From Ignavibacteria bacterium (GTDB taxonomy: Bacteria > Bacteroidota > Ignavibacteria > UBA10030 > SZUA-254), in NCBI GenBank assembly GCA_031379665.1, contig JANNFI010000089.1:18170-82169 (forward strand): a DNA stretch of 64,000 bases. Direction: 5' to 3'. This document shows, piece by piece, positions 6,534 through 31,584 of the stretch. Below the pieces are notes generated by a model. That model saw nothing but the letters and a program-made list of their open reading frames with translations, was not told the DNA's origin and ran no database searches. A program made the translations under genes and the position numbers. Position 1 is the stretch's first letter. The number at the start of each line of letters is the position of its first letter.

Positions 6534-6538
6534 CCCCG

Positions 6539-8377: not shown

Positions 8378-8447
8378 TCTGGAAGTAACCGCGGCCCCAC
8401 CGGCCTCGAGTCTCGACAGTATTTCGAAAGAAGAAACAGACGCACAG

Positions 8448-10310
8448 ATGACATTCAATTTCCGCGACACCGCGCTCATCCCGATCTGGGAGAAGGTCCG
8501 AAGTGGCGAACGCCTCTCGATGGCCGACGGCCTGGCCCTCTACGCGACGCCGGACCTCATCTCGCTCGGAAAGATGGCGCATTTCGCCAAGCAGCAGAAG
8601 AGCGGCGACGCCGTCTATTTCGTCCTCAATCAAAAAATCGAGCACACCAACATCTGTGTCCTGTCGTGCAAGTTCTGCGACTTCGCCGTGAAGAAGGGGG
8701 ACGCCGACGCCTACGAGATGACGACCGAAGAGATCGTCTCGAAGCTCACCCCCGAGATCGCGGAGGTGCACATCACCGGCGGCATGCCCGCCGACTGGCC
8801 CTGGGACCGGTATCTCGACATTGTCCGTACAATCTGTAAAAGATTCCCGAACACCGACGTCAAGGCGTTCACCGCGGTCGAGATCGACTTCTTCCACAAG
8901 AAGTTCAAAATGCCGATCGAGGAGGTCCTCCGGCAGTTGAAAGAGGCGGGACTCAAGACGATGCCGGGCGGTGGCGCGGAAGTATTCTCCGAGCGGGTGC
9001 GGAAACTCCTCTTCAACCAGAAGATCGGTGCGAAGGGATGGTTCGGCGTGCACAAGGCGGCGCACCGCCTCGGCATCCCGACCAACAGCACACTCCTCTA
9101 CGGCCACATCGAGACGCTCGAAGAGCGGCTCGACCACATGATTCAGCTGCGCGAGGCGCAGGATGAGACGGGCGGATTCCTGACGTTCATCCCCCTCGCC
9201 TTCCAGCCGGGCGACACCGGCATCAAGCCGCGCGAACGGTTCACATCGGCCATCGACGACTTGAAGACCATCGCGATTTCCCGGTTGATGCTCGACAACT
9301 TCCCTCACATCAAAGCCTACTGGGTGATGCTCACCGAGGAGGTGGCCTCGGTCGCGCTCAACTTCGGCGCCGACGACATGGACGGCACGGTGGGCCAGGA
9401 ACGCATCGCGCACGACGCCGGCGCCACGAGCCCGATGATGCTCGCGAAGGACCAGATCATTCGCATCATCAGGGATGCCGGCAAGATACCGGTCGAGAGG
9501 GACGTCTATTATAACCCCCTCAGGGTACACGCCGACAACGTCATCGGTAAAATCCCGTACCTCAACTCACTCCCGTTTTACAGCGGTTTCGAGAAGGGGC
9601 CGTTTAAGATCCTCCCGATCGTCCCGCGGAGGATGGGGATGCTCGCGGCGGACGGACAGTTGGTGGCGGGTTTGTTTTCACTGATGGATTACTACCGGAA
9701 TGAGTCGACGCTCGAGCCGCTCGACTGGGGCATCGCCACGCGCGACCAGGTGAAGAGCGTGATGCTCTTCTCGAACCACGGCTGGGCCGGCCTCGACGGG
9801 AAGCGGATCGGCGTCACCGACGAGACCGCCACGTCCATCCAGCTTCTGCGACTCCTGCTCGGGAAGAAGTACAACGTGAATGCCGAATTCGTCCGCCTCC
9901 ACGCCGGCGTGAACAGTTATGCCGACTTCGACGCGGTGCTCCTGATCGGCGACCAGGCGCTCTACCATAACAGGCGCGGCCTCGAGGGATTCGAACTCGT
10001 CTACGACCTCGCGGCCGAGTGGTACGACTGGAAGAAGATGCCGTTCGTCTTCGCGGTGTGGGCGGTGAAGAAGGACCTCCCGGCCGCGACGAAGGCCGCC
10101 CTCTCGGCCACAATCGCGGAATCACTCCGCAGGACAGAGGGCCGCTACCGGGCGATCGGTGAACTCCACGGCAGGGTCCTGGGCCTTGACCCGTCCTACG
10201 TCGAGGAATACCTCGAGGGGTTCAATTACACTCTCGGCGACAGGGAAAAAGAATCAATGCGGGAATTCAGGAAACTCACCGCCGCAGTGAACCCGGGGGT
10301 GATGATATGA
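8448..10310 (+). CDS. Radical-SAM MqnE/MqnC-family enzyme fused to a C-terminal MqnA-like (chorismate dehydratase fold) domain
   Basis: The N-terminal ~360 aa carry the CxxxCxxC motif (CVLSCKFCDF) and resemble aminofutalosine or cyclic-DHFL synthases. The C-terminal ~250 aa start IGKIPYLNSLPFYSGF, which is MqnA/MqnD-fold like. Confidence 0.8.
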   Translation: MTFNFRDTALIPIWEKVRSGERLSMADGLALYATPDLISLGKMAHFAKQQKSGDAVYFVLNQKIEHTNICVLSCKFCDFAVKKGDADAYEMTTEEIVSKLTPEIAEVHITGGMPADWPWDRYLDIVRTICKRFPNTDVKAFTAVEIDFFHKKFKMPIEEVLRQLKEAGLKTMPGGGAEVFSERVRKLLFNQKIGAKGWFGVHKAAHRLGIPTNSTLLYGHIETLEERLDHMIQLREAQDETGGFLTFIPLAFQPGDTGIKPRERFTSAIDDLKTIAISRLMLDNFPHIKAYWVMLTEEVASVALNFGADDMDGTVGQERIAHDAGATSPMMLAKDQIIRIIRDAGKIPVERDVYYNPLRVHADNVIGKIPYLNSLPFYSGFEKGPFKILPIVPRRMGMLAADGQLVAGLFSLMDYYRNESTLEPLDWGIATRDQVKSVMLFSNHGWAGLDGKRIGVTDETATSIQLLRLLLGKKYNVNAEFVRLHAGVNSYADFDAVLLIGDQALYHNRRGLEGFELVYDLAAEWYDWKKMPFVFAVWAVKKDLPAATKAALSATIAESLRRTEGRYRAIGELHGRVLGLDPSYVEEYLEGFNYTLGDREKESMREFRKLTAAVNPGVMI

Positions 10311-11404
10311 TCCAGCTCTCTTCGGTCTACGAAAAAGTGCGGGCCGGCGGGCGCCTGACGCCTGATGAGGCGGTCGTCCTCCTGAAGCACGGCGAACTTC
10401 TCGAGCTCGGCGACCTCGCAAACGGCGTCCGCGCCGAGAAGAACCCCGTGCCGAGGGTGACATTCGTGGTCGACACCAACCCGAACTACACCAACGTTTG
10501 CAACATCGATTGCATCTTCTGCGCCTTCTACCGGCACCCGGGGGACGAAGGCGAATACACCTACAGTGTCGATCATATGATCGGCGAGTTCAAGCGGTCG
10601 GCCGCCAGCGGGGTCACCACCATCCTCCTGCAGGGGGGCGTGAACCCGGCCCTGCCGTTTTCGTACTACCTCGAAATGGTGCGCCGCACGGTGGTGGAAG
10701 TTCCCGAAGTCCATCCGCACTTCTTCTCCACATCGGAGATCATCGGGATGGCGAACGTTTCGGGGCTGAGCGTGCCGGAAGTGCTGAAACAGTTGTGGGA
10801 GGCTGGGTTGCGGACCATTCCCGGCGGCGGCGCCGAGATCCTCAACGACCGGGTCAAGAAGAAAATCAGCCACCTGAAGGGGAGCTCCGACGACTGGCTG
10901 ATGGTGATGCGCGAGGCGCACAGGCTGGGTTATCGCTCGACCGCGACGATGATGTACGGCCACCTCGAAACCGACGAGGAGCTCGTAGAGCACCTCGACC
11001 GGATCCGTCGGTTACAGGACGAGACGGGCGGGTTCACGGCGTTCGTCCCGTGGAGCTTCAAGCCGGGGAACACGCCGCTCGAGAAGATCATCCCACACTA
11101 CGCCACGCCGGTGCGCTACCTCCAGGTGCTGGCGATATCAAGAATGTATCTCGACAACTTCGACCATATCCAGGCGTCGTGGTTCTCGGAAGGAAAGAAG
11201 ACGGGACAGATCGCGCTCCACTTCGGCGCCGACGATTTCGGGGGGACGCTCTTCGAGGAAAACGTACACGCGGCGGCCAACTTCGTCAATAAGAGCAACA
11301 CCGAAGAGGTCGTGAACCTCATCCGCGAGTCGGGGTTCATTCCCGCGCAGCGGGACACGCTCTATAACATTCTGAGAGTCTTCGACCCCGCGGCGGCGGC
11401 GTAG
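10307..11404 (+). CDS. Radical-SAM MqnC/MqnE paralog (futalosine pathway)
   Basis: 365 aa with CNIDCIFCAF motif. Its ATG overlaps the upstream stop (ATGATATGA). It is a paralog of the N-domain of 8448..10310. Confidence 0.8.
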   Translation: MIQLSSVYEKVRAGGRLTPDEAVVLLKHGELLELGDLANGVRAEKNPVPRVTFVVDTNPNYTNVCNIDCIFCAFYRHPGDEGEYTYSVDHMIGEFKRSAASGVTTILLQGGVNPALPFSYYLEMVRRTVVEVPEVHPHFFSTSEIIGMANVSGLSVPEVLKQLWEAGLRTIPGGGAEILNDRVKKKISHLKGSSDDWLMVMREAHRLGYRSTATMMYGHLETDEELVEHLDRIRRLQDETGGFTAFVPWSFKPGNTPLEKIIPHYATPVRYLQVLAISRMYLDNFDHIQASWFSEGKKTGQIALHFGADDFGGTLFEENVHAAANFVNKSNTEEVVNLIRESGFIPAQRDTLYNILRVFDPAAAA

Positions 11405-11408
11405 CCGC

Positions 11409-11903
11409 TCAGGGTGCGATCCGCTTGTATTCACCCGCCAGATCGCGGTCGAGCGCTTTCCCCAACGACCGCAGCCATTTCTCCAGGTAGGCGTCATCCA
11501 TTTTCGGCGACCGGGCGAGGATGCCGCGGATGTCTTCCAGGTCGCGCGGACGCCCCGCGACGATTTTATGGATGATCAGGTCTTCAACCGCAATGAATCG
11601 CACTTCTCCGGATCCAAGAGGAACTGACACAACCCGCTGCAGGGCCGATCGCTCGTATTCGCTGAATGAAAATATCAAGTCAACCCTGATGCCGGTGGCC
11701 GTTTCGATCAGGGGGAGAACGTGCGTTTCGGAAACAAACCGCCCGACGTCCTTCGTCGCAACGTCCAGCCCTGAGCCCTCAATCGGCCGAAGGACGGATT
11801 GCAACTTGTCGATGTCGACGCCCAGGGTGATGTCAATATCGCGCGTCAGCCTTGGTTCCCCGTAATAGAGCACGGCCTGGCCGCTGATCACCATATAGGG
11901 CAT
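11409..11903 (-). CDS. Minimal nucleotidyltransferase-fold protein (MNT-like, TA-module-like)
   Basis: 164 aa. N-terminus VISGQAVLYYGEPRLTRDIDITLGVDI matches the GS...DxD Pol-beta NTase signature. Confidence 0.55.
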   Translation of the reverse strand: MPYMVISGQAVLYYGEPRLTRDIDITLGVDIDKLQSVLRPIEGSGLDVATKDVGRFVSETHVLPLIETATGIRVDLIFSFSEYERSALQRVVSVPLGSGEVRFIAVEDLIIHKIVAGRPRDLEDIRGILARSPKMDDAYLEKWLRSLGKALDRDLAGEYKRIAP

Positions 11904-11944
11904 CGAGGCCGCTGTCGAGCAGGGAGGCGAGCAGGGAGGCGAGC

Positions 11945-12190
11945 TTAACGAGGAGGGCTTGAAACATCGATGTTCAACATCGCGGCCAGCCGGATGACAT
12001 CGTCGATACCCTCCAGGGGATCGTCGGATTTGAAGTGGCCGAAATGGCGCGCCTCCGCATAGAGTCCATCCAGGATCCGCAACTTCATTTCCAGAGTGAG
12101 ATGATCCGCGGCCCTGGAACGTCGATCGAAGTCCGCATATTTATCGGGGTTCGTGATCATCTGTAAATATACGCATCTCACCAACGACAA
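11945..12190 (-). CDS. Small hypothetical protein, upstream partner of the NTase gene
   Basis: 81-aa ORF, co-directional with and 41 bp upstream of the NTase gene. No recognised domain. A possible R-x3-H motif is not a canonical HEPN Rx4-6H. Confidence 0.4.
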   Translation of the reverse strand: MSLVRCVYLQMITNPDKYADFDRRSRAADHLTLEMKLRILDGLYAEARHFGHFKSDDPLEGIDDVIRLAAMLNIDVSSPPR

Positions 12191-12236
12191 TCTATCGTTG
12201 CAGGTGGTGCGCGGGTCCCGACCCCCCCCCTGCGGT

Positions 12237-13070
12237 TTACACCAGCCGGAATTCCTTCACCGCGGGCAGTCCGACCTTCTCGCTCGCCCTCCGGTAGAGC
12301 TCCTTCAGTCCCGCCTCTCCCCTTTCTCCCATGTCGATCGTCAACTCGTTGACATACATTTTCACGAACGTTTCGCCCTTTTGGGCGTCGATCCCGCGGC
12401 CCCACTCGAGCGCGTAAGGGATCGAGTCCTCCTGGTGCTTGTATCCGAAATCGATGCTGTCCCGGAGGCCGACAGACAGATCGTGCCCCATCTTTTCCCC
12501 GAGGTCCTTCCGGACCACATCGAGTCCGAGGGGAAGGGGAAGCCCGTTCGTCTCGTCGCGCCAGAGCTCGCCGAAGTCGAGGATTTTATGGTAGCCCTGT
12601 TCCTGGTAGGTAATTTGTCCTTCGTGGATCACGACGCCTGCGTCGATCCTCCCCTCGTCGATCATCGGCATCAACTGGTCGAATGGCCGGTCGACGTGCT
12701 CTATCCCTTCGGTGAACATCCTGAAGAGGAGGGTCGCGGTCGTCAGGGGTCCGGGCGTGCCGACGGTTTTTCCCTTCAGTTCGGCGAGGGTTGTGTATTT
12801 TTTCGAGATGAGGACCGGGCCGTACCCGTCTCCCATGCTTGCGCCGGTGCGCATGATCCAGTATTTGTCCTGGACGTAGGGAAAAGCGTGCGCCGAGATC
12901 GCCGTGACTTCCAGCTCCCCCTTCATCGCGCGGACGTTCAGCGATTGGATGTCCTCGAGCATATGCTCGATCCTGATCCCCTCGAGCTTGACCCTGCCGC
13001 TGGCGAGGCCGTAGAACATGAACGCGTCGTCGGGGTCCGGGCTGTGCCCCACGCGGATGATTTTTTCCAT
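12237..13070 (-). CDS. mqnD: MqnD (1,4-dihydroxy-6-naphthoate synthase), futalosine pathway
   Basis: 277 aa with the VGHSPDPDDAFMFYGL motif typical of MqnD/MqnA-fold proteins. Confidence 0.8.
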   Translation of the reverse strand: MEKIIRVGHSPDPDDAFMFYGLASGRVKLEGIRIEHMLEDIQSLNVRAMKGELEVTAISAHAFPYVQDKYWIMRTGASMGDGYGPVLISKKYTTLAELKGKTVGTPGPLTTATLLFRMFTEGIEHVDRPFDQLMPMIDEGRIDAGVVIHEGQITYQEQGYHKILDFGELWRDETNGLPLPLGLDVVRKDLGEKMGHDLSVGLRDSIDFGYKHQEDSIPYALEWGRGIDAQKGETFVKMYVNELTIDMGERGEAGLKELYRRASEKVGLPAVKEFRLV

Positions 13071-13148: not shown

Positions 13149-14687
13149 TCAGGCCTCTTCGGCCTGCTTCTTCTCGATCCGCTTGATGGTGAGGTAGAGT
13201 GCGATCGCCACGATCGTGATGATCAGCGTGGCCACTCCCAGCCCATACCGGCGGAAGTAGAACTCGTCGATGCTCTCCTGCCCCTGCACCGCCACCACGC
13301 CGGCCACGGCGATCCCCTGGTTCACCACTTCGGCAAATTTCGGCTCGTTGAAGGCGTGCACCGCTGTGCGCGACAACAGGCGCGATTGCCGGATTTCGCG
13401 GAGTCGGAACTTCGCCTCCGAGATTTCCATCCCCTTCTGCTCGGCGTTCGTCACGAGCGAATCGGCCCGCCGTTCAGAGCGCTCGAGCGAGTCGATCATC
13501 GTCCGCATCAGCGCGGCCGCCTGGTAGCCTTTCGGGTTGTCGGCCGGCGAGTGGCAGCGGGAGCAGACCGCCTCGTCGGAAGTCCCGAGGAGGGCGTCGG
13601 TGGCGTTGATGATCGCGTGGTTGCCATGGCACGTCTCACACTCCGGCAGCCCGAGTTCGTCGTACGCCTTCTTGTGGGGGCTCTCGGCGAACAGCGATGC
13701 GTTCATCGCGTGGCAGGTCCCGCACACTTTCGAGATGGAGGCCACTTCCGGCGGCGCCGCGCCGTGGTTGCCGTGACAGTCGTTGCACGAGGGGGCTCCG
13801 AGGTCGTGTTTTTCCAGAAGAGCTTTGCCGTGGACGCTGGTGCGGAACTCGGCGAGCTGGTCGGTCCCGATGGAATACTCCTTCATATACTCGGCGTTCG
13901 CGTGGCAGGTGCCGCAGGTGTTGGGCAGGTTGATCGCGTTGACGCTCGATTTCGCGTCGACGGCCCTGAGGATGTCGTGGCTGCCGTGGCAACTGGAGCA
14001 GACGGCCACATTTGAGTCTCCCTTCGCGAGCCTCATCCCGTGGACGCTCGTTTTGTATTTCTCCTCCTGGTCGATCGGCAGGGCCTGGTTGTACGACCGC
14101 ATGAAGACAGCGCTGGAGTGACAGGTCGCGCAGGTCTTGTTGACGTTCAGGTGATTGACGGGGGACCGGGGATCCTTGACGCTTTTGATGTCGTGGACGC
14201 CGTGGCAGGTGACGCACTGGACCATTTTCTCCACCCCCGAGACGGCCATTTTCCCGTGGACGCTGGCCGCGAGGTTTTCCATCTGGTTCAGACTGAGCGA
14301 CGACTTGAAGTTCGTCTTCATCACTTGCGCGTCGGAGTGGCACCGCTGGCAACTCTTCGAGATGTCGTCGCCCTTCGGGACGCCGATGAATCCGTGGTCG
14401 GCCGACATCGACTTTTCCTGGTCGTCGGAAGATGGATCACCGCCGTGGCACCCCGCGCACGATATCCCTTTCTGATAATGTATGTCGGCCGCGTATTTCA
14501 TCCCTACCGCTTCTCCAAGGGCCTTGTGGCAGGTGAGGCAATTGTCCGGCTTCGCGGTCGCGGTCCTGAACAGGGCGTCGGCGGATTGCGCGTGGAGCGC
14601 GCCGGCGAGGATGAGCTGGATAGCGGCGATGACGATCGGTAGCGACGGCGCGATGCGGATGACCGTTCGTGTTTTCATGAGAGCCAT
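13149..14687 (-). CDS. Undecahaem c-type cytochrome with C-terminal transmembrane anchor
   Basis: 11 CxxCH motifs counted (CLTCH, CAGCH, CQRCH, CVTCH, CATCH, CSSCH, CGTCH, CNDCH, CGTCH, CETCH, CSRCH). Signal peptide [37 protein letters not shown]-terminal helix [18 protein letters not shown]. The alternative ATG at 14678 overlaps the cyt b stop (ATGA). The track extension to 14969 is an antisense overlap. Confidence 0.8.
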
Positions 14688-15769
14688 CCGATGATGGTCA
14701 TGACGATGATGAACATGACGGCGATGAGGCCGCCGTAGGTGACGAGCCGGCTCTTCTTCCCCCTCGCGCTGCTCCTGTCCCAGAACGGCACCAGCGTCCA
14801 GAGCAGCCCGGCGAGGCCGAAGAACATGATGCCGAGCACCTCCCCTTCGAAGACGAGGATGTTCGCCGGAAGGTACTTGAGCGTCTGGAACATGAACATG
14901 AAGTACCACTCCGGTTTGATCCCCGCCGGGGCCGACGCGAAGGGGTCGGCCTTCACGCCGAGCTCCCACGGGAAGAGCACCGCGAGCACGGCCAGAAGGT
15001 TCAGGACGATGAGCCAGAGCAGGAGGTCCCGGTAGAGGAAGTTCGGGAAGAAGGGCATCTTCTTCATTGGGATGGGCGGCGCCGCGCCCGGGGCCGCGAC
15101 ATCGGAGCCCAATGGCTCGCTCATCCCCTGCCGCTGGACCAGAACGAGGTGGATCCCGAGGAGGACGGTGAAGAGGCCGGGAAAGACCGCCACGTGGAAC
15201 CCGAAGAACCTCGAGAGGGTCGCGCCGGTGACGTCGGGGCCGCTCCGGAGGAATTCCAGGATCGGCTCGCCGATGAACGGCACCACGCCGGCGATGTCGG
15301 TGCCCACCTTGGTGGCGAAGAACGCCAGCTCGTTCCAGGGAAGCAGGTATCCGCTGAACCCGAAGCCCATCCCGAGGAAGAGCATCAGCATCCCGGTGAG
15401 CCAGGTGATCTCGCGCGGTTTGCGGTAAGTCCGTTCGAAGAAGACGCTGAACATGTGGATCATCGCCGACAGGATGAAGAGGTTCGCCGCCCAGCTGTGG
15501 ATCGACCGGATCAGCCAGCCGAACTCCACCTTCGACATGATATATTGAATGCTCTCGTACGCCAGGTCCTCGCTGCCTTTATAGTAGAGGAGCAGCATGA
15601 TCCCGGTGACGACCTGGATGATGAAGAGGAAGAGCGTCACACCGCCGAAGTAGTACCAGATGGAGTGGCGGTGCACGGGCACGTACTTCTTCCCCATGAA
15701 GTTCACCAGGTCCTCGAGGTGGACCCGCTCGTTGACCCAGCCGTAGGCCTTTTCGAGGGCCTTCTTCAT
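14675..15769 (-). CDS. Cytochrome b of a bc/b6f-type complex
   Basis: [21 protein letters not shown]..., polytopic with conserved His-containing helices. Start ATG at 15769 overlaps the Rieske stop (ATGA). Confidence 0.85.
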
Positions 15770-16227
15770 ACAATTTTCGCGATCACGATTTCGTCCCCCT
15801 GGACGACGACCTTGTACGGTTCGAGCGGTCTTGGCGGCGGTCCCGCGACGTTCCGGCCGGTCAGGTCGTACTTGCCGTTGTGGCAGGCGCACCAGATCAT
15901 CCCGATCTCCTTGTTGAACTGAACGGTGCAGTCGAGGTGCGTGCAGGTGGCGTCGAACGCCTTGAGCTCGTCGTCGGCCGTGCGCACGAGGATCACCGGC
16001 TTGTTGCCGAACTTGATGATCTTTCCTGAATCGCGCGCAAGGTCGTCCTTCTTCCCCGCGTTCACCGACTTCACCTCCACCTCCGCCTGCACCGGCGGCT
16101 TCAGGTACGCGAGGATGGGGTAGAAGATCGAGGCGAAGAAGGCGAGAAGGCCGCCCGAGAGGACGTACCGTAAAAAGTTTCGTTTTCCCTCATCGGGCGC
16201 CGGCCGGGAGCTGGTTGCGTTCATCAT
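15766..16227 (-). CDS. Rieske 2Fe-2S protein
   Basis: CTHLDC...CACHNGKY Rieske boxes, N-terminal TM helix, 153 aa. Confidence 0.9.
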
Positions 16228-16260
16228 TCCATGTGCTCAGTCGTTACGGGGTCGTCCGGG

Positions 16261-17760
16261 CTATTGCGCGCCCGGCGCGTGACACTCGCTGCAGTTCATT
16301 TCCATCCAGGCGTCGCCGATGTCGACCGGGTGTTTGTAATCGATCCCCCCGAGCGAAATTCTCAGTGTGTCCTCCTCGAATTTCTGCGCGAGGATCGTAT
16401 GGCAGGTGTTGCAGTCCTTCGAGAGAACCTTCCCCTGCTCGTTGACGTGCTTGCCGTCGTGGCAGCGGAAACAGCCGTTATAATAGAGGTGCCCCAGGTT
16501 GTCGGGAAACTTCCTCCAGTCGGTCTTCATCTCGGGGAAGTAATTCCGGTTGTAAATCTTCTGGACCTCCGCGATGGCGCTGTCGAGCGTCGGCTTCCCC
16601 GACGCGAAAACCTCCGGGTGGTTGTCCCGGTAATAGCCTTCCATCGTGAGCCGGATGGTGTCGAGCGCGCCCTCCCTGGTGGAGTAGTCTGCCTCGAGCG
16701 CCTCGACGCTCACCGACTTCACCGACGGCAGCGACGGGCTGATCCAGCCGAGCGACATCACGTGGTTCACCGAGCGGGCTGGTGGATGGTAGATGTGCGA
16801 CGGGCGGTTGTGGCAATCGATGCAGTCCATCCGGCGCGTGAAGGCGGTCTCGAGCGAATCCTCCGTGACCTCGACCTCGGTGCTCCGGTAGATCGTCTCC
16901 GCGCCGTCCGGTGTCCTCGACCTGACCCACGGGATCACCTGGCGCCCGCGGTCGAGCGCCTTGTAGGTTACCTCGTGCGCGATGTTCATGTGCCAGTGGA
17001 TGCCGGAGGTGGGCCCCGCCTCTGCGTTTCCTCCCCCGATTTTCATCAGCAAATTAATGTCCCACCGGGTGTTTTTGTCGTCGGCGAGGTAGTAGGTGTT
17101 CGTCCGCTGTTTCTCACTGAAGAAGTGCTTCGGCCAGTGACACTGTTCGCACGTCCCCTGCGCCGGACGGAGGTTTTCGATCGGGGTGGGGATCGGCTTC
17201 GGGTATTTGTCGAAGGCGACTGCGTAAAGCTGGTAACTACCGGAGATCTTCGCCTTCACGAACCAGTCCGCCCCCGACCCGATGTGGCACTGCACGCAGC
17301 CCACCCTCGCGTGGGGGGAGAACTGGTAGGCGGTGTACTCGGGCTCCATCACCGTATGGCACGTTTCCCCGCAGAACTCGTCGGACTCCGTGTACTCGTA
17401 CGCCTTGAAGCTGCCGAACGCCGAGAAGAGAAGGAGCGCGAGGCCGCCGGCCGAAATGCTCACGAACGCGGTCCGGTGCCTCGGGTTGTTCAGGTCGATC
17501 TGCGGGAGGTGCAGACCGTGGGGCTTGCCGAGCCGCTCGCGGCGATTTTCGCGCATCACGCCGTAGGTCATCAGCGCGATCCCCAGGAGGAGGAACACCG
17601 GCATGATCACGAACGTGATGATGCCGACGTAGGGATTCTCGACGGCGGCCATCAACTCGAGGATCGTCAGGAACAGGATCAGGCCGAAACTGATGCCTGC
17701 GATGGCCGCCCCGATGAGCGTGACAAGGTTGTAGAACGATTGGGGGAAGATGCGTTTCAT
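16261..17760 (-). CDS. Heptahaem membrane cytochrome c with three N-terminal TM helices (ImcH-like architecture)
   Basis: 7 CxxCH (CGETCH, CVQCH, CEQCH, CIDCH, CFRCH, CNTCH, CSECH). Three hydrophobic helices precede the first haem. The ATG at 17760 (MKRIFPQSFYNL) is preferred. Confidence 0.75.
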   Translation of the reverse strand: MKRIFPQSFYNLVTLIGAAIAGISFGLILFLTILELMAAVENPYVGIITFVIMPVFLLLGIALMTYGVMRENRRERLGKPHGLHLPQIDLNNPRHRTAFVSISAGGLALLLFSAFGSFKAYEYTESDEFCGETCHTVMEPEYTAYQFSPHARVGCVQCHIGSGADWFVKAKISGSYQLYAVAFDKYPKPIPTPIENLRPAQGTCEQCHWPKHFFSEKQRTNTYYLADDKNTRWDINLLMKIGGGNAEAGPTSGIHWHMNIAHEVTYKALDRGRQVIPWVRSRTPDGAETIYRSTEVEVTEDSLETAFTRRMDCIDCHNRPSHIYHPPARSVNHVMSLGWISPSLPSVKSVSVEALEADYSTREGALDTIRLTMEGYYRDNHPEVFASGKPTLDSAIAEVQKIYNRNYFPEMKTDWRKFPDNLGHLYYNGCFRCHDGKHVNEQGKVLSKDCNTCHTILAQKFEEDTLRISLGGIDYKHPVDIGDAWMEMNCSECHAPGAQ

Positions 17761-17875
17761 TCTGGCGTCGTTGGCTGGAAACAGCTGGCAATGTAATGAT
17801 TCCAGCGGTGAATGCAAATCTCAGCGGCGTTCGCGGCGGGGCTGGAGGCCCCCGTGAGCACACGATTCGTCCGGT

Positions 17876-20125
17876 TCATCGACCGTCGCCCGGCGGCTTT
17901 TCGGGTTCCTGTTCCGTCCCGTCCCCGGCCGCGAGCTCTTCCCTCGTCCTGTCGGCCACGATCCGTTGCAGCTCGAGCGGATGGTCCTCTTCCATCTCTT
18001 CCTCGGTCAGCGTCCCCTTCCAGAACGCCACGTTCAGGGGATACACGTCCGGGTTGAAGATCACGAAGTAGAAGTGCCACACGACGATGGCGAGCGTCGC
18101 CAGCCACGCCTCGTAGTAGTGTATGGTTCGGGCCACGTCATATCCCATTTTCGTGAGGAGGCCGATGAACGTGTTGTCGAACCACATGACGACGCCTGTT
18201 ACGCCCATGATGAAGGTGCCCCATATGAGAGCCCAGTATTCGGCTTTCTCGATGTAGGAAAACCGGTCGAAGAGCGGGCGCTCCGCTTTGAGGCCGAGGT
18301 TGTACCTCACCATCGCGACGGCGTCCCTGGCGTCACGGAGCCGCGGGAGCATGTCGTTGATAAGGCGTCGCCCCGGATGGGTGAAGAGGACGTACCAGAC
18401 GTGGTAGAAGCTCGCCCCCAGCATCACCACCCCGGCGACGCGGTGGATGACGCTGCGGGTGTCGAACACCGATCCGCTCAGCGACCTGATCCACTGCACC
18501 CACCACGCCTCGGGGAAGCGGAGCATGAACCCGGTAACGACCAGCGTCGTGAAGCTCAAAAGGAGCGCTGCGTGCTGGAACCTTTCGTTGGCCCCCATCC
18601 TCGGGTAGAGCTCGTGGCTCGTATGGGGGTGGGGGATGAGGCCGCGCCGGACCATCAGTTTCCGGCGTGATTTCCTCACGAAGTCGAGCGCGTTGTGGAC
18701 GAGCATCCCCCCGATAATGACCACGATCAACGCGATGTAGGCCGTCGAGATCCAGTAGAGCGTCGGCTCTTCCGCGCGGGAGGTCTCGTCGACGTGGACC
18801 TTGCCGACGGTAAACCGTTCGTTCGCCCCGGGATGGCAGCTGCCGCAGGTCTTTGCGAGGTTCGCGTGGTTGATCGTGGAGGTGGAATCGTCCGACGACC
18901 TGATGTTGTGCGTCCCGTGGCAGCTCGCGCAGTTGGCGACCTCGATCGAGCCGCCGCGGATGGCGAGGCCGTGGTAGCTGTCGGAGAAAGTGCGGAAACG
19001 GTCGCTCGCGATGCCGTACTTGGTCGAGAGGGCGGCGGAGCTGTGGCACGGCGAGCAGACCTGTGCCGAGAGGTTTTTCTTCGAGACGGGCGAGTTCGGG
19101 TCGTCGTGCCTGAGAATCGTATGTTCCCCGTGGCAGTCGGTACAGGTCGGCGCGTCGACAACCCCCTTCCGCACGGCCTCGCCGTGTACGCTCCCGTTGT
19201 AAACGTTCGCGATCTCCTCGTGACACTTGGAGCAGGTTTCGGAGATGTTCATCTTGCTGACTTTCGCCGTCGGGTCGTACCCCTTCGCCATCTCGTGGCT
19301 GCCGTGGCAATCGACGCAGTTGGGCGCGTCACCGTTACCGTTGACCAGCGCCCGCCCGTGGACGCTCTGTTCGTACGCGGCGATGAAGCCCGCCGACGGC
19401 GAGGACCTTTCCCTGACATCGGGGTTGTCGAGGTGGCAACTCAGGCAGAGGTGTTCCTGCGCCAGCTTCAAACCGACGGCGTCGTCGGGGTGGCTCGCAG
19501 ACGTGATGTCGTGGTCGTGACAGCTTATGCATTCCGGCGCGCCCTTCACCCCTGCGGAAAACGCCACGCCGTGCGCCGATGCGGCAAACTGCCCGACCAC
19601 ATCGTCGTGGCACCGGCTGCAGCCGTCGGAAATGTTCGCGCGGTTGAACGGCGATTCCTTCGTGTCGGGTGAAATGACGTCGTGGGTACCGTGACAGTCC
19701 TTGCACGAGACCGTGGGTTCTTCCTTCGCGGCGATTGCCCTCGCCATCCCGGGATGGAACGAGTGTTTCAATTCGACGCCCCTGTGGCAGGTGAGGCACT
19801 CCACCGGCCGTATGGTTTTCTTGTGCGGGAGCTCGTTGATGTCGAAGCCCGCGTGACAGGCCGAACAGACCAGTTTCCGATGCGGCGACCTGTCGAGGAC
19901 TGCGGCGTCGACGTGGAGCGACACCGGCGACCCGTTTCTCTCGGTCGCGAGCGATGCGTCGGAGTGGCAGGCCAGGCAGTCGTCCTTCGACTGGGCCCTC
20001 GCGGGACCGTTCAACATCCAGAACGCGGCCAGGAGGAACGCCACGGCCGCGAGGGCCACCACGAGCATCAGCCGCGCGAGCGGACTGCGTGCGGTGTATC
20101 CGGCGGATTGATCGTTGGTGTTCAT
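17876..20125 (-). CDS. 13-haem cytochrome c fused to a C-terminal dihaem b-type membrane domain (CbcL-like architecture)
   Basis: 13 CxxCH in the N-terminal ~450 aa. The C-terminal ~280 aa has 4-5 TM helices with conserved His pairs (HRVAGV...YHVWY, HYYEAW...WHFYF), resembling FdnI/HydC Ni_hydr_CYTB domains. Confidence 0.8.
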   Translation of the reverse strand: MNTNDQSAGYTARSPLARLMLVVALAAVAFLLAAFWMLNGPARAQSKDDCLACHSDASLATERNGSPVSLHVDAAVLDRSPHRKLVCSACHAGFDINELPHKKTIRPVECLTCHRGVELKHSFHPGMARAIAAKEEPTVSCKDCHGTHDVISPDTKESPFNRANISDGCSRCHDDVVGQFAASAHGVAFSAGVKGAPECISCHDHDITSASHPDDAVGLKLAQEHLCLSCHLDNPDVRERSSPSAGFIAAYEQSVHGRALVNGNGDAPNCVDCHGSHEMAKGYDPTAKVSKMNISETCSKCHEEIANVYNGSVHGEAVRKGVVDAPTCTDCHGEHTILRHDDPNSPVSKKNLSAQVCSPCHSSAALSTKYGIASDRFRTFSDSYHGLAIRGGSIEVANCASCHGTHNIRSSDDSTSTINHANLAKTCGSCHPGANERFTVGKVHVDETSRAEEPTLYWISTAYIALIVVIIGGMLVHNALDFVRKSRRKLMVRRGLIPHPHTSHELYPRMGANERFQHAALLLSFTTLVVTGFMLRFPEAWWVQWIRSLSGSVFDTRSVIHRVAGVVMLGASFYHVWYVLFTHPGRRLINDMLPRLRDARDAVAMVRYNLGLKAERPLFDRFSYIEKAEYWALIWGTFIMGVTGVVMWFDNTFIGLLTKMGYDVARTIHYYEAWLATLAIVVWHFYFVIFNPDVYPLNVAFWKGTLTEEEMEEDHPLELQRIVADRTREELAAGDGTEQEPEKPPGDGR

Positions 20126-20132
20126 ATTGGCC

Positions 20133-20972
20133 TCAGCGCGCGAGTTTCACGTCGTTGATCGCCTCGACCACGAGGGGAAAATACCGGTCGAGGGCGCATT
20201 CGACGTCGTCGCGCAGGTTGCAGCTTCCGCCCGGAGACTGGTGCACGCAGACCGAACAGACTTTTTCCCTCAGCCGTGCGACGAATGGCCCGATGTCGTC
20301 GCCTCCGGTGGTGAGCACGATGTCGATGATCTCAGGCAGGTAACGGTTGATGGCACACTCGTCAAAGGTGGAGGTGACGCAAAGCCCCGTCGGGGTGCGG
20401 TCGAGGCATTTCGCGCACACCCTCTGCCGGATCTCCCGGAGATACAGTTCTTCGTGCGACATGGAGTTCTCCCCTTCCATTTCCCAGTTTGTGGTTTCGG
20501 CAGGCTTCCGCGCGGTCCGTCCGGGCTTCACGACCATCACCGGTATGGAGGCGCCTCGCAGGATCTCCCCGGCGATTCCACCGGTGCGGACAGGATCACC
20601 CGCCGGCTCCCCTCCGGCCGGAAGCGGGAGCACGATGATGTCCATCCCTTCCTCCCGCGCGAACCTCAGGATCTCCGCGGCGGGCACCCCCCTGCGGACG
20701 ATACAGGCAAGCCGGGAATTCGGCCTGACCTTCTTCAGGAAGAACTCTTCCATCGCGTGGTATTTTTTCCGGAGATCCGGATCATCCTCCGCCGGTGATG
20801 CGTGATTTCCCGGGGCGAACCTCTCTTCGGGCGGGGTGATGACGTGAATCAGGTATATCTGTGATTTTTTTCCGTCGGAGAGGGCCAGGGCGGCATCGAG
20901 CGCGCATAATGAGGTGTCGGTGAGGTCGACCGGTACCAGAATCTTGTCGATATGTGCGGCTTTCTTCGACAT
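20133..20972 (-). CDS. Universal stress protein domain fused to a duplicated 4-Cys C-terminal module
   Basis: UspA-like N-terminus (KILVPVDLTDTSLCALDAALAL...VLPLPAGG). C-terminal repeats are VCAKCLDRTPTGLC..ECAINRYLP and VCSVCVHQSPGGSC..ECALDRYFP. Lies 7 bp upstream of the CbcL-like gene. Confidence 0.7.
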   Translation of the reverse strand: MSKKAAHIDKILVPVDLTDTSLCALDAALALSDGKKSQIYLIHVITPPEERFAPGNHASPAEDDPDLRKKYHAMEEFFLKKVRPNSRLACIVRRGVPAAEILRFAREEGMDIIVLPLPAGGEPAGDPVRTGGIAGEILRGASIPVMVVKPGRTARKPAETTNWEMEGENSMSHEELYLREIRQRVCAKCLDRTPTGLCVTSTFDECAINRYLPEIIDIVLTTGGDDIGPFVARLREKVCSVCVHQSPGGSCNLRDDVECALDRYFPLVVEAINDVKLAR

Positions 20973-21033: not shown

Positions 21034-21045
21034 TGATTTTTATCA
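21034..21045. promoter_or_regulatory. Candidate FNR/CRP-family operator (TGAT-TTTT-ATCA) in the usp/respiratory-operon promoter
   Basis: A perfect TGATnnnnATCA palindrome sits about 60-75 bp upstream of the USP start, in the gap between the Crp/Fnr gene end and the USP gene. Confidence 0.35.
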
Positions 21046-21854: not shown

Positions 21855-22790
21855 CTATAAAATCTCGGAGATCTCGTGAAGGGTGAAGCGCGTGCGTTTC
21901 CCCTTGAGCGCGACGTCGTTGAACGTTTCCCTTGGGCGCACCCGCCCGAAGACCTCGCGCAGCGCCGCGTCGGAAATGAGCATCGACGTGCCGGTCTGTT
22001 TGTTGGCCTCCTCGATTCGCTCGGCCACGTTCACCGCATCGCCAATGACGGCCATTTTTTCCATGTTGGCCATGCCAATGGTGCCGATCACCACAGGGCC
22101 GTAATGGATCCCGATGCGGACACGGAACTTCCGCCGGTACATCGCCTGCAGGTAGGGGTTCAGCGAATCGACCTCCCAGAGCATCTCGAGTCCGGCGCGG
22201 ATCGCGCGGTAGACCGGATCAGGAGCGTCGTCGATCCCGAAGAGCGCCATGATGCCGTCGCCGATGTAGTCGTTGATCCGGCCGCCGTGAGAGTCGATCA
22301 CCCGCCCCATTGTGATGAAGTACCTCCGGAGCGCGTGGATGACATCGTACGCCGGGAGCGACTCCGCGAACGATGTGTAATCGCCGATGTCCGCGAAGAG
22401 GATGGCCAGGTGTTTCTCCTCTCCGACCGACCCTAGCTTGAGACCATGGCCCGTCTGGTCGGCGAGCTGAATGTCGAGCGTGTCGAGGACCGTACGCCGG
22501 ACGGTGACGTCGCCGTTGACCCTGGTCTGACAGGCGAGGCGCACCTGGGGATCGAAGTTGAGCCTGCCCGCAATTTTCTCTTCGGCGCCCTGGCGCGGCG
22601 AGCAACGGTCGAGGCCGGCGATTACCACGACACGGCAGGTGGAGCACCTGGCCTTCCCGCCGCAAACGTGGACGTGGGGGATCCCGGAATCGAGGGAGGC
22701 CTCGAGGATGGTGGTCTCTCCGGATGCCTCCATCTCTTTCTCGTCGGGGAGCATCAAGATCTTGTTCATCGCCTCACCGTCAGTTGCCAT
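21855..22790 (-). CDS. 2Fe-2S ferredoxin domain fused to class III adenylate/guanylate cyclase catalytic domain
   Basis: N-terminus has CGGKARCSTCRV...C (plant-type ferredoxin). The C-terminal CHD has FADIGDYTSF...RIGIHYGPVVIGTIG...GDAVNVAERIE. An alternative start at 22769 (MNKILMLPDEK) also fits. Confidence 0.8.
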   Translation of the reverse strand: MATDGEAMNKILMLPDEKEMEASGETTILEASLDSGIPHVHVCGGKARCSTCRVVVIAGLDRCSPRQGAEEKIAGRLNFDPQVRLACQTRVNGDVTVRRTVLDTLDIQLADQTGHGLKLGSVGEEKHLAILFADIGDYTSFAESLPAYDVIHALRRYFITMGRVIDSHGGRINDYIGDGIMALFGIDDAPDPVYRAIRAGLEMLWEVDSLNPYLQAMYRRKFRVRIGIHYGPVVIGTIGMANMEKMAVIGDAVNVAERIEEANKQTGTSMLISDAALREVFGRVRPRETFNDVALKGKRTRFTLHEISEIL

Positions 22791-23562: not shown

Positions 23563-23931
23563 CTATTGTAGCAGTACTGTTCCATTAAAGCGTGAATAAT
23601 GACAACTGGTTACAGGATCTGTGGGGACCAGGGCCCCATTGGCATGAGCCAGCGTGTTCCGTGCGACGACGCCGCGTAAACTACAATGGTAAAGTTTCTT
23701 CCGGAGCGCACCAAGACATGTTTCGATATCCCGGAGACTTTTTCTGAGGGTAATCTGGGCAAATGCCAGAGCTACGAACTGACTGCGCCGCGAGAACCGT
23801 TTGACGTAACGATCCCCCTGATATCGTCTGACGCACCGGCGGAACTCCGGCATCGGGAGGAAGTCCCTGAGTTGAGCGAAGACCGTTTTTCCCCTGTGTT
23901 CATCTACCCATCCTAACCCGAGGAGAAACAT
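23563..23931 (-). mobile_element. IS4-family (DUF4372-type) transposase N-terminal fragment, truncated remnant
   Basis: MFLLGLGWVDEHRGKTVFAQLRDFLPMPEFRRCVRRYQGDRYVKRFSRRSQFVALAFAQITLRKSLRDIETCLGA matches the N-terminal region of IS4/ISPg1-like transposases. The ORF stops after 122 aa and the DDE catalytic part is absent. Confidence 0.6.
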
Positions 23932-24205
23932 CAGAATAGGTGGGGAATTGACACTGTCAAAGTTCTAATCTATTGCTCTCTTTTAATGTCGTAACGCGGT
24001 CACGTACAATGTGTTACAAGGATTTATGAAAAGTTTTTTGAGACAGTATTGCTATTGTATCTCAAGATAATCGTTCCTACCTTACGGTATGTTACAACAT
24101 TCAGCGATTTACATATCGGAAGTTCGGGACGCACGTGAACGATTATTAAGGTAGGCGTCAAGCTTCAATTCTCGCTTAGAAACTCGGTGGAGATTTAATC
24201 AAGCG

Positions 24206-24709
24206 ATGCGAATAACAAAAGTACTTGGCATTCGCATATTTGGGGTCGTTATATTTTGCATCCTAATGCTTGATGTAATTTTTCTCACGTTGGAAAATAG
24301 AGAACTTAAAACCGCTCTCGATGCCGTTGCCCAGCGCGACGAAAGCCCTCAGCTTCCCGGGATGGTTATACCTACTTTTGGTGCTTTGACTCTGGGAAGA
24401 AACGCAGTCACACTTAATCTTGCTGATTCAGGTAAGCATTATCTTCTTTTTTTACTCTCCGCAGACTGTCACGCGTGTGAATCCACGTTAGGCTCATGGA
24501 ACTCCTTTAAGACCGAGGGTAACGTCGAGATACTGGGTGTATCGCTCAGTAATTACGAGGAGACCGTCCGATATGTGGGTTCTAATAGTGTCGAGTTTGA
24601 TGTCTTGACGCTGTCAGATCCGAATTTTATCCCCACAATCAAAATTAGAAGTATCCCATTAACCATCCTCATAAACCCGAGAGGGGTCGTCGTTAAATCG
24701 TGGGGGTGA
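24206..24709 (+). CDS. Membrane-anchored thioredoxin-fold (TlpA/ResA-like) protein with CHAC active-site motif
   Basis: N-terminal TM helix. YLLFLLSADCHACES is a CxxC motif in a thioredoxin-like context, and IPLTILINPRGVVV is a cis-Pro region. Confidence 0.55.
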   Translation: MRITKVLGIRIFGVVIFCILMLDVIFLTLENRELKTALDAVAQRDESPQLPGMVIPTFGALTLGRNAVTLNLADSGKHYLLFLLSADCHACESTLGSWNSFKTEGNVEILGVSLSNYEETVRYVGSNSVEFDVLTLSDPNFIPTIKIRSIPLTILINPRGVVVKSWG

Positions 24710-24825
24710 ATACTGTCACCAAGCGATCTACAAGATATTCGATCCCTCCTCATATCGGAGAATATTTCAGATAATTCCAAGCCATAAATAATTATCAACT
24801 CAATCAACCAACCTAGGAGGGAGTC

Positions 24826-25047
24826 ATGAATGCTTTTCCGAAATCCAGCCTGCTTTATGTTATTGGATTCGTCATTGCCATGGCGGGTTTAATTCAGCTA
24901 AATGTTACCGTAGCCAAAGCGGACCTCCCTCCATGTCCCACAGTGTGTTCTTGTGATGACCCGAGGCCGGGTGGGTGTGCGTGGAACTGTAACGGACAAA
25001 TCATCTCAAATTGTGGGGCATACTACAGTTTCTGCTGTCATTCTTGA
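24826..25047 (+). CDS. Secreted cysteine-rich small peptide (10 Cys in the C-terminal 42 aa)
   Basis: AGGAGG lies 7 nt upstream of the ATG. Signal peptide ends ...VTVAKA, followed by DLPPCPTVCSCDDPRPGGCAWNCNGQIISNCGAYYSFCCHS. Confidence 0.55.
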   Translation: MNAFPKSSLLYVIGFVIAMAGLIQLNVTVAKADLPPCPTVCSCDDPRPGGCAWNCNGQIISNCGAYYSFCCHS

Positions 25048-25179
25048 TGTTCCAGGGGAGTGAGGGTCACGCTCTCTCGTCCTGAATGAACAGCGGATTG
25101 CTGTCCTTTGACAAACATCACCCCTAAGTTATCATTAAAAATAAAAGATAGTGCATTGATAACATAGGGGTGAAATATT

Positions 25180-25938: not shown

Positions 25939-26213
25939 CTGTAGGTCAACCCCATCAGATTAGGCAAAAGCATTGGCCCAACAATTGTTGGACATTTTTT
26001 TATTATAGAACATTTCAATAGTTATCTCTGCTCTTTGGGGTCGTAGATACTAATTTCCGAGGTGGATCACTTTGAGGGGAGCCGGTCATTCATCGAGACG
26101 CCGCTAATTTTTCAACAAAGCCATTGCGCTTCTCACCGAATATCCCTTTACACCTATGTCGATTCGTTACCAATCACCAGCATTGCTCCCAATAAAATCT
26201 GACCGGAACGGAG

Positions 26214-28056: not shown

Positions 28057-28063
28057 GGCATCC

Positions 28064-31577: not shown

Positions 31578-31584
31578 GTCGTCC

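Follow-up and report, generated by a model that had tools for sequence, protein, structure and literature searches.

What is known of how electrons exit the quinone pool during mineral or electrode respiration comes mainly from Geobacter and Shewanella. In the former, the enzymes ImcH, CbcL, and CbcBA are encoded separately, each for use over a different range of acceptor potentials. As to a further Geobacter cluster, one conserved and encoding a Rieske/cytochrome b (cyt b) pair together with multihaem cytochromes, we know of no role that has been assigned to it. Considered here is a locus in which several such potential exits are encoded side by side. It lies within a 64,000-nucleotide stretch of DNA from an Ignavibacteria bacterium (contig JANNFI010000089.1; ‘the window’ hereafter is the whole of that stretch), where six genes at 13149-20972 encode, among other proteins, an ImcH-like cytochrome, a CbcL-like cytochrome, and a Rieske/cyt b core that is accompanied by an 11-haem cytochrome.

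The individual parts of this locus have precedents. For Geobacter ImcH, electroneutral oxidation of menaquinol with reduction of periplasmic cytochromes has been demonstrated, its gene being described as monocistronic and its partners as unknown. Members of the CbcL/MtoC/MtrH family possess an N-terminal periplasmic multihaem c domain with 3-23 CX2CH motifs, and mostly six transmembrane (TM) segments, the defining paper admitting members with four or five. For Rieske/cyt b cores that have multihaem partners, reports exist on Geobacter, from 2010 and 2018, and on anammox bacteria, and in Caldithrix there is a Rieske/cyt b pair beside epsilon-Hao. Homologues of both ImcH and CbcL have already been catalogued in Ignavibacteriae. 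What is described here thus is known families in a new, widely conserved arrangement, that is, not a new kind of machine. The reading which we favour, at a probability of roughly 0.55, is of one operon encoding three separate menaquinol:multihaem-cytochrome oxidoreductases, these acting in parallel in the inner membrane and feeding periplasmic haem chains.

The six genes, as taken from the list of open reading frames (ORFs) of the window and given in the order of their presumed transcription, are as follows:

20133..20972, minus strand: universal stress protein (USP) domain with a C-terminal eight-cysteine (8-Cys) domain, first operon gene (Pfam Usp, E 2e-15)
17876..20125, minus strand: CbcL/MtoC/MtrH-like inner-membrane cytochrome, 13 c-haems plus a predicted dihaem-b domain (13 CXXCH; PF01292, TIGR01583)
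16261..17760, minus strand: ImcH-family inner-membrane cytochrome, three TM segments, one CX3CH and six CXXCH (motif spacing, TM segments, ligands)
15766..16227, minus strand: Rieske 2Fe-2S subunit, N-terminal TM anchor, KR (Tat-like) motif (PF00355, E 1e-13)
14675..15769, minus strand: cyt b, b6-type, fused to a subunit-IV-like part, about seven TM segments (PF00033, E 9e-49, plus PF00032)
13149..14678, minus strand: 11-haem cytochrome with signal peptide, helical stalk, and C-terminal TM anchor, in the gene position of cyt c1/f

Start and stop codons overlap as ATGA at both the Rieske/cyt b and the cyt b/11-haem junctions, and the remaining gaps are of 7 nt (USP/13-haem), 115 nt (13-haem/7-haem), and 33 nt (7-haem/Rieske). 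A simple scan, at background level overall, found no terminator-like site in the 115-nt gap, and a sigma-70 promoter scan is uninformative for this lineage. The same genes are present on a 10.5 kb public contig of identical sequence. An earlier description of this DNA, made from the letters and their translations only (the sequence-only reading), had six co-directional genes separated by overlaps or short gaps, and had 31 haem-c motifs. Checking of ORFs and junctions bears out the former and recounting the latter, as 13 plus 7 (six CXXCH and one CX3CH) plus 11. These three cytochromes are the sole ORFs in the 64 kb with at least two CXXCH. That description also had ImcH-like and CbcL-like proteins ‘fused’ into one operon with a bc-type core, of which the combination within one operon stands but the fusion does not, as these are separate genes.

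The 7-haem protein is the most readily placed of the three cytochromes. It is 499 residues long, as against about 495-519 for the ImcH family, with TM segments by hydropathy at 15-33, 45-63, and 98-116, those of Geobacter ImcH (GSU3259) being at 13-35, 45-67, and 100-122. Its haem motifs start at residues 130 (CGETCH, right after the third helix), 155, 204, 313, 430, 450, and 490, versus 132, 156, 205, 311, 428, 448, and 486 in GSU3259. For orthologues, use was made of a scan of a collection holding one genome per species, with the best 80 of at least 592 matched stretches encoding an ImcH-like relative then analysed; in those 80, all seven motifs are invariant. The NapC/NirT N-terminal region is matched as well (PF03264, E 1.2e-9), such that the three TM helices and NapC/NirT-type homology which had been supposed for this protein are found by hydropathy and Pfam scan, respectively. 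The NrfH model TIGR03153 is matched with E 1e-14, though below its equivalog cutoff, as expected for a protein that is not NrfH, and the sole sequence match in the Protein Data Bank (PDB) is also to an NrfH (2j7a_C), with E 4e-4 using the single sequence and 1.7e-4 using a profile.

According to a preprint, the His and Gln ligands of haem 1 of ImcH are conserved along with neighbouring Glu, Lys, and Tyr residues (H137, Q179, E127, K173, and Y188 of GSU3259). The window protein has H135, Q177, E125, K171, and Y186 at the GSU3259 spacings, i.e., with the others 10, 36, 42, or 51 residues from the His. The His, Lys, and Gln do not vary among the 80 orthologues; D or E occupies the Glu position (Asp in 60), and at the Tyr position 61 have Y, 16 have F, and three have I. 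An AlphaFold2 (AF2) model has helices at 12-37, 43-77, and 93-123, mostly with a predicted local distance difference test score (pLDDT) of 66-90; its mean pLDDT, however, is 56 and falls below 50 over the haem domain, the underlying alignment was shallow (at least 69% identity), and this model was excluded from the fold search. With each of the tandem imcH copies of Bacterium BMS3Abin03 (locus L081), the window protein shares about 60% identity; one of these copies, at 497 residues, has the motif pattern of GBD86519.1, an ImcH homologue listed by Zhong & Shi. By all of the sequence tests that were run, the 7-haem protein is a member of the ImcH family, with its function a predicted one. Separately, it may be observed that the L081 paralogues, at 7941-9434 and 10001-11497, are about 570 bp apart, and that in a metagenome-assembled genome (MAG) labelled Nitrospiraceae (L058, 10001-12382) an imcH-like gene is extended to 13 CXXCH and 793 residues.

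The 13-haem protein, of 749 residues, has its CXXCH motifs at residues 50-431, after a signal anchor, and that count is constant among complete orthologous ORFs. Past the haem domain, a crude hydropathy scan finds five TM segments (at 458, 519, 563, 631, and 672), with the region equivalent to TM6 absent. Residues 511-692 match Ni_hydr_CYTB (PF01292, E 2.2e-17), that is, the C-terminus does possess the b-type, FdnI/HydC-like domain which had been proposed for it, and there are matches also to TIGR01583 (E 2e-11) and TIGR02125 (E 3e-7), both below their equivalog cutoffs. His518, 561, 575, 669, and 684 are invariant in 49 orthologues. Certain relatives of this locus encode fused 19-haem proteins with which the 13-haem protein can be aligned from end to end (E 1e-82 to 1e-94), and the motif spacing of those fused proteins is, within one residue, that of OGU58019.1 at 18 of 18 intervals, OGU58019.1 being a CbcL homologue in the Zhong & Shi listing. 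The ImcH-like and CbcL-like assignments of the sequence-only reading therefore both hold, the second by way of this transitive link. A search of representative sequences found 6021 related clusters, typically of 600-700 residues with 9-11 haems, 36-45% identical over residues ~248-725; a PDB sequence search with the 13-haem protein gave no matches. A candidate for direct anchoring to Geobacter CbcL, P0344 (606 residues, nine haems, motif positions resembling those of GSU0274), was set aside, as its homologues are of Marinimicrobia, Ignavibacteria, and Melioribacter rather than of Geobacter.

The third module consists of the Rieske, cyt b, and 11-haem proteins. The Rieske subunit has its N-terminal TM segment at residues 22-40, and in 64 orthologues there is no variation in its boxes, CTHLDC and CACHNGKY. 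Cyt b combines Cytochrome_B (PF00033) and Cytochrom_B_C (PF00032) domains within a single 364-residue chain whose best PDB matches are to cyt b6 (E 1.5e-57). Its His91/105 (13 apart), His192/207 (14 apart), and PEWY at 286-289 are invariant in 59 orthologues. The haem-ci Cys is absent from the window cyt b, which reads IWYYFGG at what we take to be the site corresponding to ...YCLGG of b6. Scores against NCBIfam models fall short of the cutoffs, at 233 bits versus 325 for cyt b as a b6, 67 bits versus 154 and 250 for the Rieske protein, and 201 bits versus 290 for cyt b on the ExtP model, i.e., not equivalog. The locus has no gene for a monohaem cyt c1 or cyt f; instead, the third core gene is that of the 11-haem cytochrome. 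Gene content and Pfam scans thus agree with what had been stated previously, a Rieske/cyt b core that is without a conventional c1 or f. Because the c1/f gene is absent and the 11-haem gene stands in third position, this core is, as judged by sequence, a Rieske/cyt b complex of the multihaem type and not a strict bc1 or b6f. Also considered was the Ignavibacteria cyt b clade termed ‘GPWY’ (Kao & Hunte), which was ruled out, the Qo motif here being PEWY.

The 11-haem cytochrome itself has 11 CXXCH, an N-terminal signal sequence, a long helical stalk, and by hydropathy one C-terminal TM segment, at 480-498. That it takes the place of cyt c1/f is probable within the reading of three parallel enzymes, because of its gene position, the start/stop overlap with cyt b, the C-terminal-anchor topology, and its likeness to the anchored multihaem subunits of anammox bacteria. 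Across its 53-61 orthologues there are only ten invariant non-motif His for the eleven haems. Because ten distal His would be serving eleven haems, one haem is predicted to have an unusual ligation, that is, to be either His/Met-ligated or five-coordinate. As a separate observation, the invariant His441 sits in the helical stalk.

A five-coordinate haem raises the issue of catalysis, i.e., that the Rieske/cyt b and 11-haem proteins might form a quinol-dependent reductase whose substrate is soluble and in the periplasm (nitrite, NO, hydroxylamine, sulfite, and selenite being examples), with the 11-haem protein as catalytic subunit. The best structural matches of the AF2 model of that protein are in fact to NrfA, HAO, HAO-like, and octahaem nitrite reductases. 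Precedents exist too, in the Caldithrix Rieske/cyt b beside epsilon-Hao, in anammox Kuste4569-4574 with its HAO-like subunit, and in the Geobacter ext cluster, which has been tied to selenite and tellurite reduction. The matches are modest, however, with TM-scores of 0.36-0.40 at 11-21% identity, as would be expected for multihaem packing generally; there is no CXXCK motif in the 11-haem protein; the invariant Met91, 120, 265, and 417 could provide a His/Met haem rather than one that is five-coordinate; and half of the testable relatives run from this gene straight into a porin-cytochrome conduit. We consider such a reductase to be unlikely.

It is by comparison of relatives that a set of parallel enzymes may be told from other possibilities. 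Homologues of the ImcH-like protein number in the thousands; the best 120 have identities of 70% or more, and such of them as carry a name derive from MAGs of Ignavibacteriae or Bacteroidota. Of the best 80 loci, nearly all are from Ignavibacteria-class MAGs, along with a few labelled Gemmatimonadota; the nearest relative is MAG MFD02809.bin.2.75, whose five redox proteins are 83-95% identical to those of the window. Complete orthologues down to 51-60% identity retain the haem counts of 13, 6+1, and 11. The locus is not a rare one; an ImcH-like relative is encoded by at least 592 matched stretches, and the cluster is found widely among public MAGs. Enough sequence was available for judging gene order downstream of imcH in 62 loci, upstream of imcH in 49, and downstream of the 11-haem gene in 37.

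Downstream of imcH, the Rieske, cyt b, and 11-haem genes follow directly in 42 of 62 loci, and they follow after an insert of ~2.7 kb in eight more, such that checking of related MAGs for co-occurrence, as had been suggested, finds imcH, Rieske, cyt b, and 11-haem genes together in 50 of 62. In the other 12, the fetched flank contains no Rieske/cyt b/11-haem unit, with most of these 12 retaining the CbcL-like gene. The ~2.7 kb insert has three genes, one for an 8-haem cytochrome, one for an NrfC-like 4Fe-4S protein, and one for an NrfD-like membrane protein, whose products together appear to be a fourth type of quinol-oxidase module in this cluster. These three genes are found between imcH and Rieske in loci L013, L014, L015 (11516-14210), L018, L026, and L034, and just after imcH in L038 and L047. 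Upstream of imcH, the 13-haem gene is adjacent, as in the window, in nine of 49 loci, is separated by other genes in 35, is divergent in two, and is absent in three, for a presence in 46 of 49. For 28 of the 35 separated loci, the intervening genes encode a 19-haem cytochrome and a second dihaem cyt b, a pair that in ten loci is fused to a single ORF of ~920-945 residues (1118 residues as called in L003). The window is without this pair, having at 17761-17875 a stretch compared as 108 bp where its closest relative, L002, has 3.2 kb (6749-9943).

Such variation bears on whether the CbcL-like, ImcH-like, Rieske, cyt b, and 11-haem proteins could constitute a single, stoichiometric menaquinol:acceptor respiratory supercomplex, which is what the sequence-only reading had proposed. 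Operon packing is indeed tight, imcH is directly upstream of Rieske in those 42 of 62 loci, and, with Geobacter imcH monocistronic and its partners unknown, a conserved neighbour is a reasonable candidate partner. Nevertheless, modules come and go independently, with the 12 of 62 loci having no Rieske/cyt b in the flank downstream of imcH, with a complete 8-haem/NrfC/NrfD module of quinol-oxidase type standing between imcH and Rieske in eight, and with the CbcL-like gene either divergent or separated. Each protein, moreover, has its own predicted quinol-interacting membrane part, i.e., the FdnI-type dihaem-b domain, the NrfH-like haem-1 pocket, and the Qo/Qi sites of the Rieske/cyt b complex, and so none needs the others. 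Because relatives add, remove, and insert modules independently, parallel enzymes are favoured over one supercomplex, which we now deem very improbable; the proposal of an undescribed single supercomplex is not supported by this comparison, to which the coming and going of the 19-haem pair contributes as well.

Taken to its extreme, the same variation might instead suggest no functional unit at all, but rather an ‘island’ of cytochrome genes within which unrelated respiratory genes have accumulated side by side, and the window's having lost the 19-haem and cyt b pair relative to its closest relative fits with that. Against this are the start/stop overlaps, an operator-like site that is conserved upstream (see below), an order that is the same in most of the 80 species-level genomes, down to ~60% identity, and the fact that all of the modules share one substrate class. 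A mere accumulation of genes, then, we also give little credence.

As to where electrons might go, the genes which follow the 11-haem gene are informative. In 19 of the 37 testable relatives these encode a c554-like 4-haem cytochrome, a beta-barrel porin, a 14-haem cytochrome of ~410 residues, and a lipoprotein cytochrome; in eight there is a CcmF-like haem lyase; and in ten there is neither. The Ignavibacterium album conduit, IALB_1837-1840, has a periplasmic cytochrome, IALB_1838, with 14 haems in 400 residues (Shi 2014). It is because of this linkage to a conduit in relatives that the evidence points to extracellular electron transfer as the usual sink, making of the locus a plausible route of mineral respiration, and the periplasmic or extracellular acceptor that had been suggested for it is plausible on the same grounds.

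Electrons could also flow the other way, that is, from Fe(II), a cathode, or a partner cell, via the multihaem cytochromes, with the Rieske/cyt b complex driven by proton-motive force to deliver them uphill to menaquinone, and with the CbcL/MtoC-type protein serving as a quinone reductase. An uphill route of this sort through Rieske/cyt b has been proposed for acidophilic iron oxidisers, and Rieske/cyt b complexes are reversible. Homologues of CbcL/MtoC/MtrH are found both in metal reducers and in Fe(II) oxidisers, with direction not told by their sequence. ImcH homologues, on the other hand, have been implicated so far only in quinol oxidation and are not found in known metal oxidisers; the window genes that were scanned against Pfam include no marker of carbon fixation or Fe oxidation; and reported Ignavibacteria physiology is of Fe(III), arsenate, and nitrate reduction. 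Reverse flow is accordingly something to which we attach a low probability.

If the locus does encode three parallel oxidoreductases, then menaquinol made by way of neighbouring futalosine-pathway genes would supply all three, with electrons passing from each towards the periplasm. In the CbcL-type enzyme, a dihaem-b membrane domain would be wired to 13 periplasmic c-haems. The ImcH-type enzyme would oxidise quinol at an NrfH-like site, by its His/Gln haem 1, and pass electrons along six more haems. In the b6-type Rieske/cyt b complex, an anchored 11-haem cytochrome, with a C-terminal anchor and a putatively NrfA/HAO-like fold, would replace cyt f/c1. Electrons would end up at an acceptor, extracellular or periplasmic, by way of a porin-cytochrome conduit that about half of the relatives encode next door. 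Energy coupling would differ by module. A Q cycle is electrogenic. By family analogy, the Rieske/cyt b module thus would be electrogenic and the ImcH module electroneutral, while the dihaem-b route of the CbcL type would move electrons outward from a quinol site on the N side and could serve low-potential acceptors. The three modules, as extrapolated from family knowledge, could act as different energetic ‘gears’, together allowing respiration of acceptors over a wide range of redox potentials.

A narrower proposal, which is tentative and on the whole doubtful, though it is worth keeping in mind, is that imcH, Rieske, cyt b, and 11-haem genes, plus the conduit in relatives, encode a proton-motive, Q-cycle-coupled route of extracellular electron transfer, to which ImcH would be a physical or functional partner. 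The Rieske/cyt b complex in that case would pass electrons directly to its own membrane-anchored haem ‘wire’.

Several points weigh against parallel menaquinol oxidases that serve an extracellular acceptor. The 13-haem protein has the predicted architecture of CbcL/MtoC/MtrH, but its link to that family is transitive only, via the 19-haem paralogues. Haems with bis-His ligation are usually of low potential; the ten of the 11-haem protein that seem to be of that kind would be awkward acceptors for a Rieske donor, which bears also on the energetics of a Q cycle. An NrfA/HAO-like modelled fold plus one haem without a conserved distal His leaves room for a role that is catalytic instead of one of wiring. 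Searching the whole 64-kb window with tblastn gave no match to the porin, 14-haem, 4-haem, lipoprotein cytochrome, or CcmF-like proteins of relatives, and all of these are absent also within the 21.5 kb that was fetched for the closest relative, L002. Direction of electron flow is not readable from sequence and, like the acceptor and the energetic division of labour, is argued for here by context. Co-transcription and regulation we infer from gene spacing and from one conserved palindrome. No cultured carriers are found among the 80 closest genomes, that is, close relatives are all MAGs, to which a physiology is not attachable.

Further features, which flank the six genes, are the following:

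21034..21045, no strand assigned: FNR/CRP-type palindrome TGAT-N4-ATCA, candidate operator, 62-73 nt upstream of the USP start codon
21140..21853, minus strand: Crp/Fnr-family regulator, cyclic-nucleotide (cNMP)-binding plus HTH_Crp_2 (Pfam families of the identical public contig)
21855..22790, minus strand: 2Fe-2S ferredoxin plus adenylate/guanylate cyclase fusion (PF00111 plus PF00211)
12237..13070, minus strand: MqnD-like menaquinone (futalosine pathway) gene, directly downstream (PF02621, E 3e-72)

Going upstream from the operon there thus are the Crp/Fnr regulator, the ferredoxin/cyclase fusion, and then YceI. The palindrome, TGATTTTTATCA at 21034-21045, stands within the 135-nt spacer that precedes the USP gene and is the only TGAT-N4-ATCA in the 64 kb, chance expectation being 0.76 per window. 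It is kept at the same place in L002 (3652) and L003 (3790), within a spacer that has otherwise diverged. In those same two loci the regulator has orthologues in the same position, at 83-88% identity, and the ferredoxin/cyclase fusion is conserved. The adjacent Crp/Fnr-type regulator probably switches the operon on, and it is possible that the ferredoxin-cyclase provides it with redox input, both being proposed because of the conserved palindrome. Palindrome, regulator, and cyclase fusion in combination suggest a circuit in which redox state would act on cNMP, and cNMP on the regulator.

In the product of the USP gene, with which the operon begins, Pfam Usp spans residues 8-149, and the ~120-residue tail (window 20133-20500) consists of two repeats, CxxC-x6-8-C-x7-8-C-A-[IL]-[ND]-[RK]-[YF]-[FL]-P, with no Pfam or NCBIfam match to this Cys-rich tail. 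Orthologues occupy the equivalent place in L002 and L003, at 59-70% identity. The 8-Cys domain also occurs as a stand-alone ORF of ~110 residues (L024 452-787, L035 18329-18670) and within a 164-residue ORF of L031 (380-874). It could be a metal or redox sensor.

Directly downstream of the operon is a menaquinone cluster, at 5128-13070, which has MqnD-like, radical-SAM MqnC/E-like, UbiD, and UbiA genes, i.e., a futalosine-type set that is consistent with the adjoining menaquinone biosynthesis which had been reported. Besides separate MqnC/E-like and MqnD-like genes, it includes a 620-residue ORF (8448-10310) fusing a radical-SAM MqnC/E-like part to an MqnD-like (VitK2_biosynth) domain. Inside the cluster, on the opposite strand, is an AbiEii/DUF6036-type nucleotidyltransferase (toxin-like) gene, at 11409-11903. 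No other respiratory enzymes were found among the window ORFs scanned against Pfam. Several nearby proteins have type IX secretion system (T9SS) sorting tails, which, along with relatives that are of the Ignavibacteria class, upholds the T9SS-bearing Fibrobacteres-Chlorobi-Bacteroidetes (FCB) origin that had been surmised. Two tandem DUF1800/DUF1501 gene pairs are found at 26482-33291, both DUF1501 proteins with T9SS C-terminal sorting domains. Lastly, the GC content of 24001-26000 is 45%, versus ~61% elsewhere; that region includes a 252-residue ORF (25180-25938) with no Pfam match, and next to the dip, at 23563-23931, is a 122-residue ORF that is truncated-transposase-like by eye only. Regions 24001-26000 and 23563-23931 may represent a foreign insertion.

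Literature searches found no description of imcH, cbcL-like, and Rieske/cyt b/11-haem genes in one operon, nor of the continuation of that operon into a conduit, and this gene combination goes without description in the papers that treat I. album, M. roseus, Caldithrix, and Deferribacter. The locus as an ‘undescribed’ system, as it had been called, thus may hold for the combination but not for its core, which is known from Geobacter GSU2930-2937 and from anammox bacteria. What the combination implies is that, in a large and environmentally common FCB lineage, quinol oxidases of ImcH, CbcL, and Rieske/cyt b type would share a single inferred transcription unit, one that in many species continues into an outer-membrane conduit. 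The locus is a compact genetic marker with which to predict this metabolism in metagenomes, offers candidate partners for ImcH, and is a natural system in which to examine whether extracellular electron transfer can have a Q cycle coupled to it. Should the Q-cycle proposal be true, then the ImcH partner gap would be filled, a role would be assigned to the unexplained Rieske/cyt b clusters of metal reducers, and the energy that Ignavibacteria conserve per electron in mineral respiration would exceed what the Geobacter paradigm permits. If the modules are parallel alternatives only, then the arrangement is an informative but incremental extension of known biology.

Set against known systems, the locus shares with each a part. 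With Geobacter ImcH (Levar 2014; Zhong & Shi 2018), the 7-haem protein has in common a length of ~500 residues, three N-terminal TM segments, a CX3CH beside the membrane plus six CXXCH, a NapC/NirT/NrfH-like region, the His/Gln haem-1 ligands, and the Glu/Asp, Lys, and Tyr around the proposed menaquinol site. Where the Geobacter gene stands by itself, however, imcH of the window and of most of the Ignavibacteria relatives examined is directly upstream of the Rieske/cyt b/11-haem unit. With Geobacter CbcL (GSU0274), the 13-haem protein shares a periplasmic multihaem c domain and a C-terminal FdnI/HydC-type dihaem-b domain with conserved His ligands, but GSU0274 has nine haems in 619 residues with six TM segments after the haem domain, rather than 13 haems, 749 residues, and, by the crude hydropathy scan, five.

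Among complexes of bc type, b6f and menaquinol:cytochrome c reductases provide the closest solved relatives of cyt b and share the 13/14 His spacing, the PEWY Qo motif, and Rieske boxes with disulfide cysteines. The window differs from b6f in having neither cyt f/c1 nor the haem-ci Cys, in having b6 and subunit IV as one chain, and in scoring below b6/PetC cutoffs. The anammox complexes Kuste4569-4574 and Kustd1480-1485 likewise are b6f-like at their core, with a hexa- or octahaem cytochrome, anchored in the membrane, standing in for cyt f; one such subunit has long helices that wrap the complex, and one of the complexes has an HAO-like partner. Compared with these, the window is without an NAD(P) oxidoreductase subunit and without the haem-ci Cys, has 11 haems, belongs to another phylum, and has the context of an extracellular-electron-transfer module. 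The I. album IALB_1837-1840 genes match in composition the conduit that follows the 11-haem gene in the 19 relatives, a conduit absent from the window, and the published description of that porin-cytochrome conduit (Pcc) mentions no adjoining Rieske/cyt b, imcH, or cbcL.

Geobacter GSU2930-2937 (extKLMNOPQS) encodes the Rieske protein ExtO, cyt b as ExtP and ExtQ, and 4-, 5-, 10-, and 12-haem cytochromes, with the porin ExtI adjoining. Common to both are a b6-like Rieske/cyt b core, multihaem cytochromes in place of c1/f, and an outer-membrane porin nearby, which for the window means in its relatives, where the porin module is of I. album Pcc type rather than ExtI. In the window, by contrast, cyt b and subunit IV are fused, the multihaem partner is a single 11-haem protein, and imcH- and cbcL-like genes are part of the same operon.

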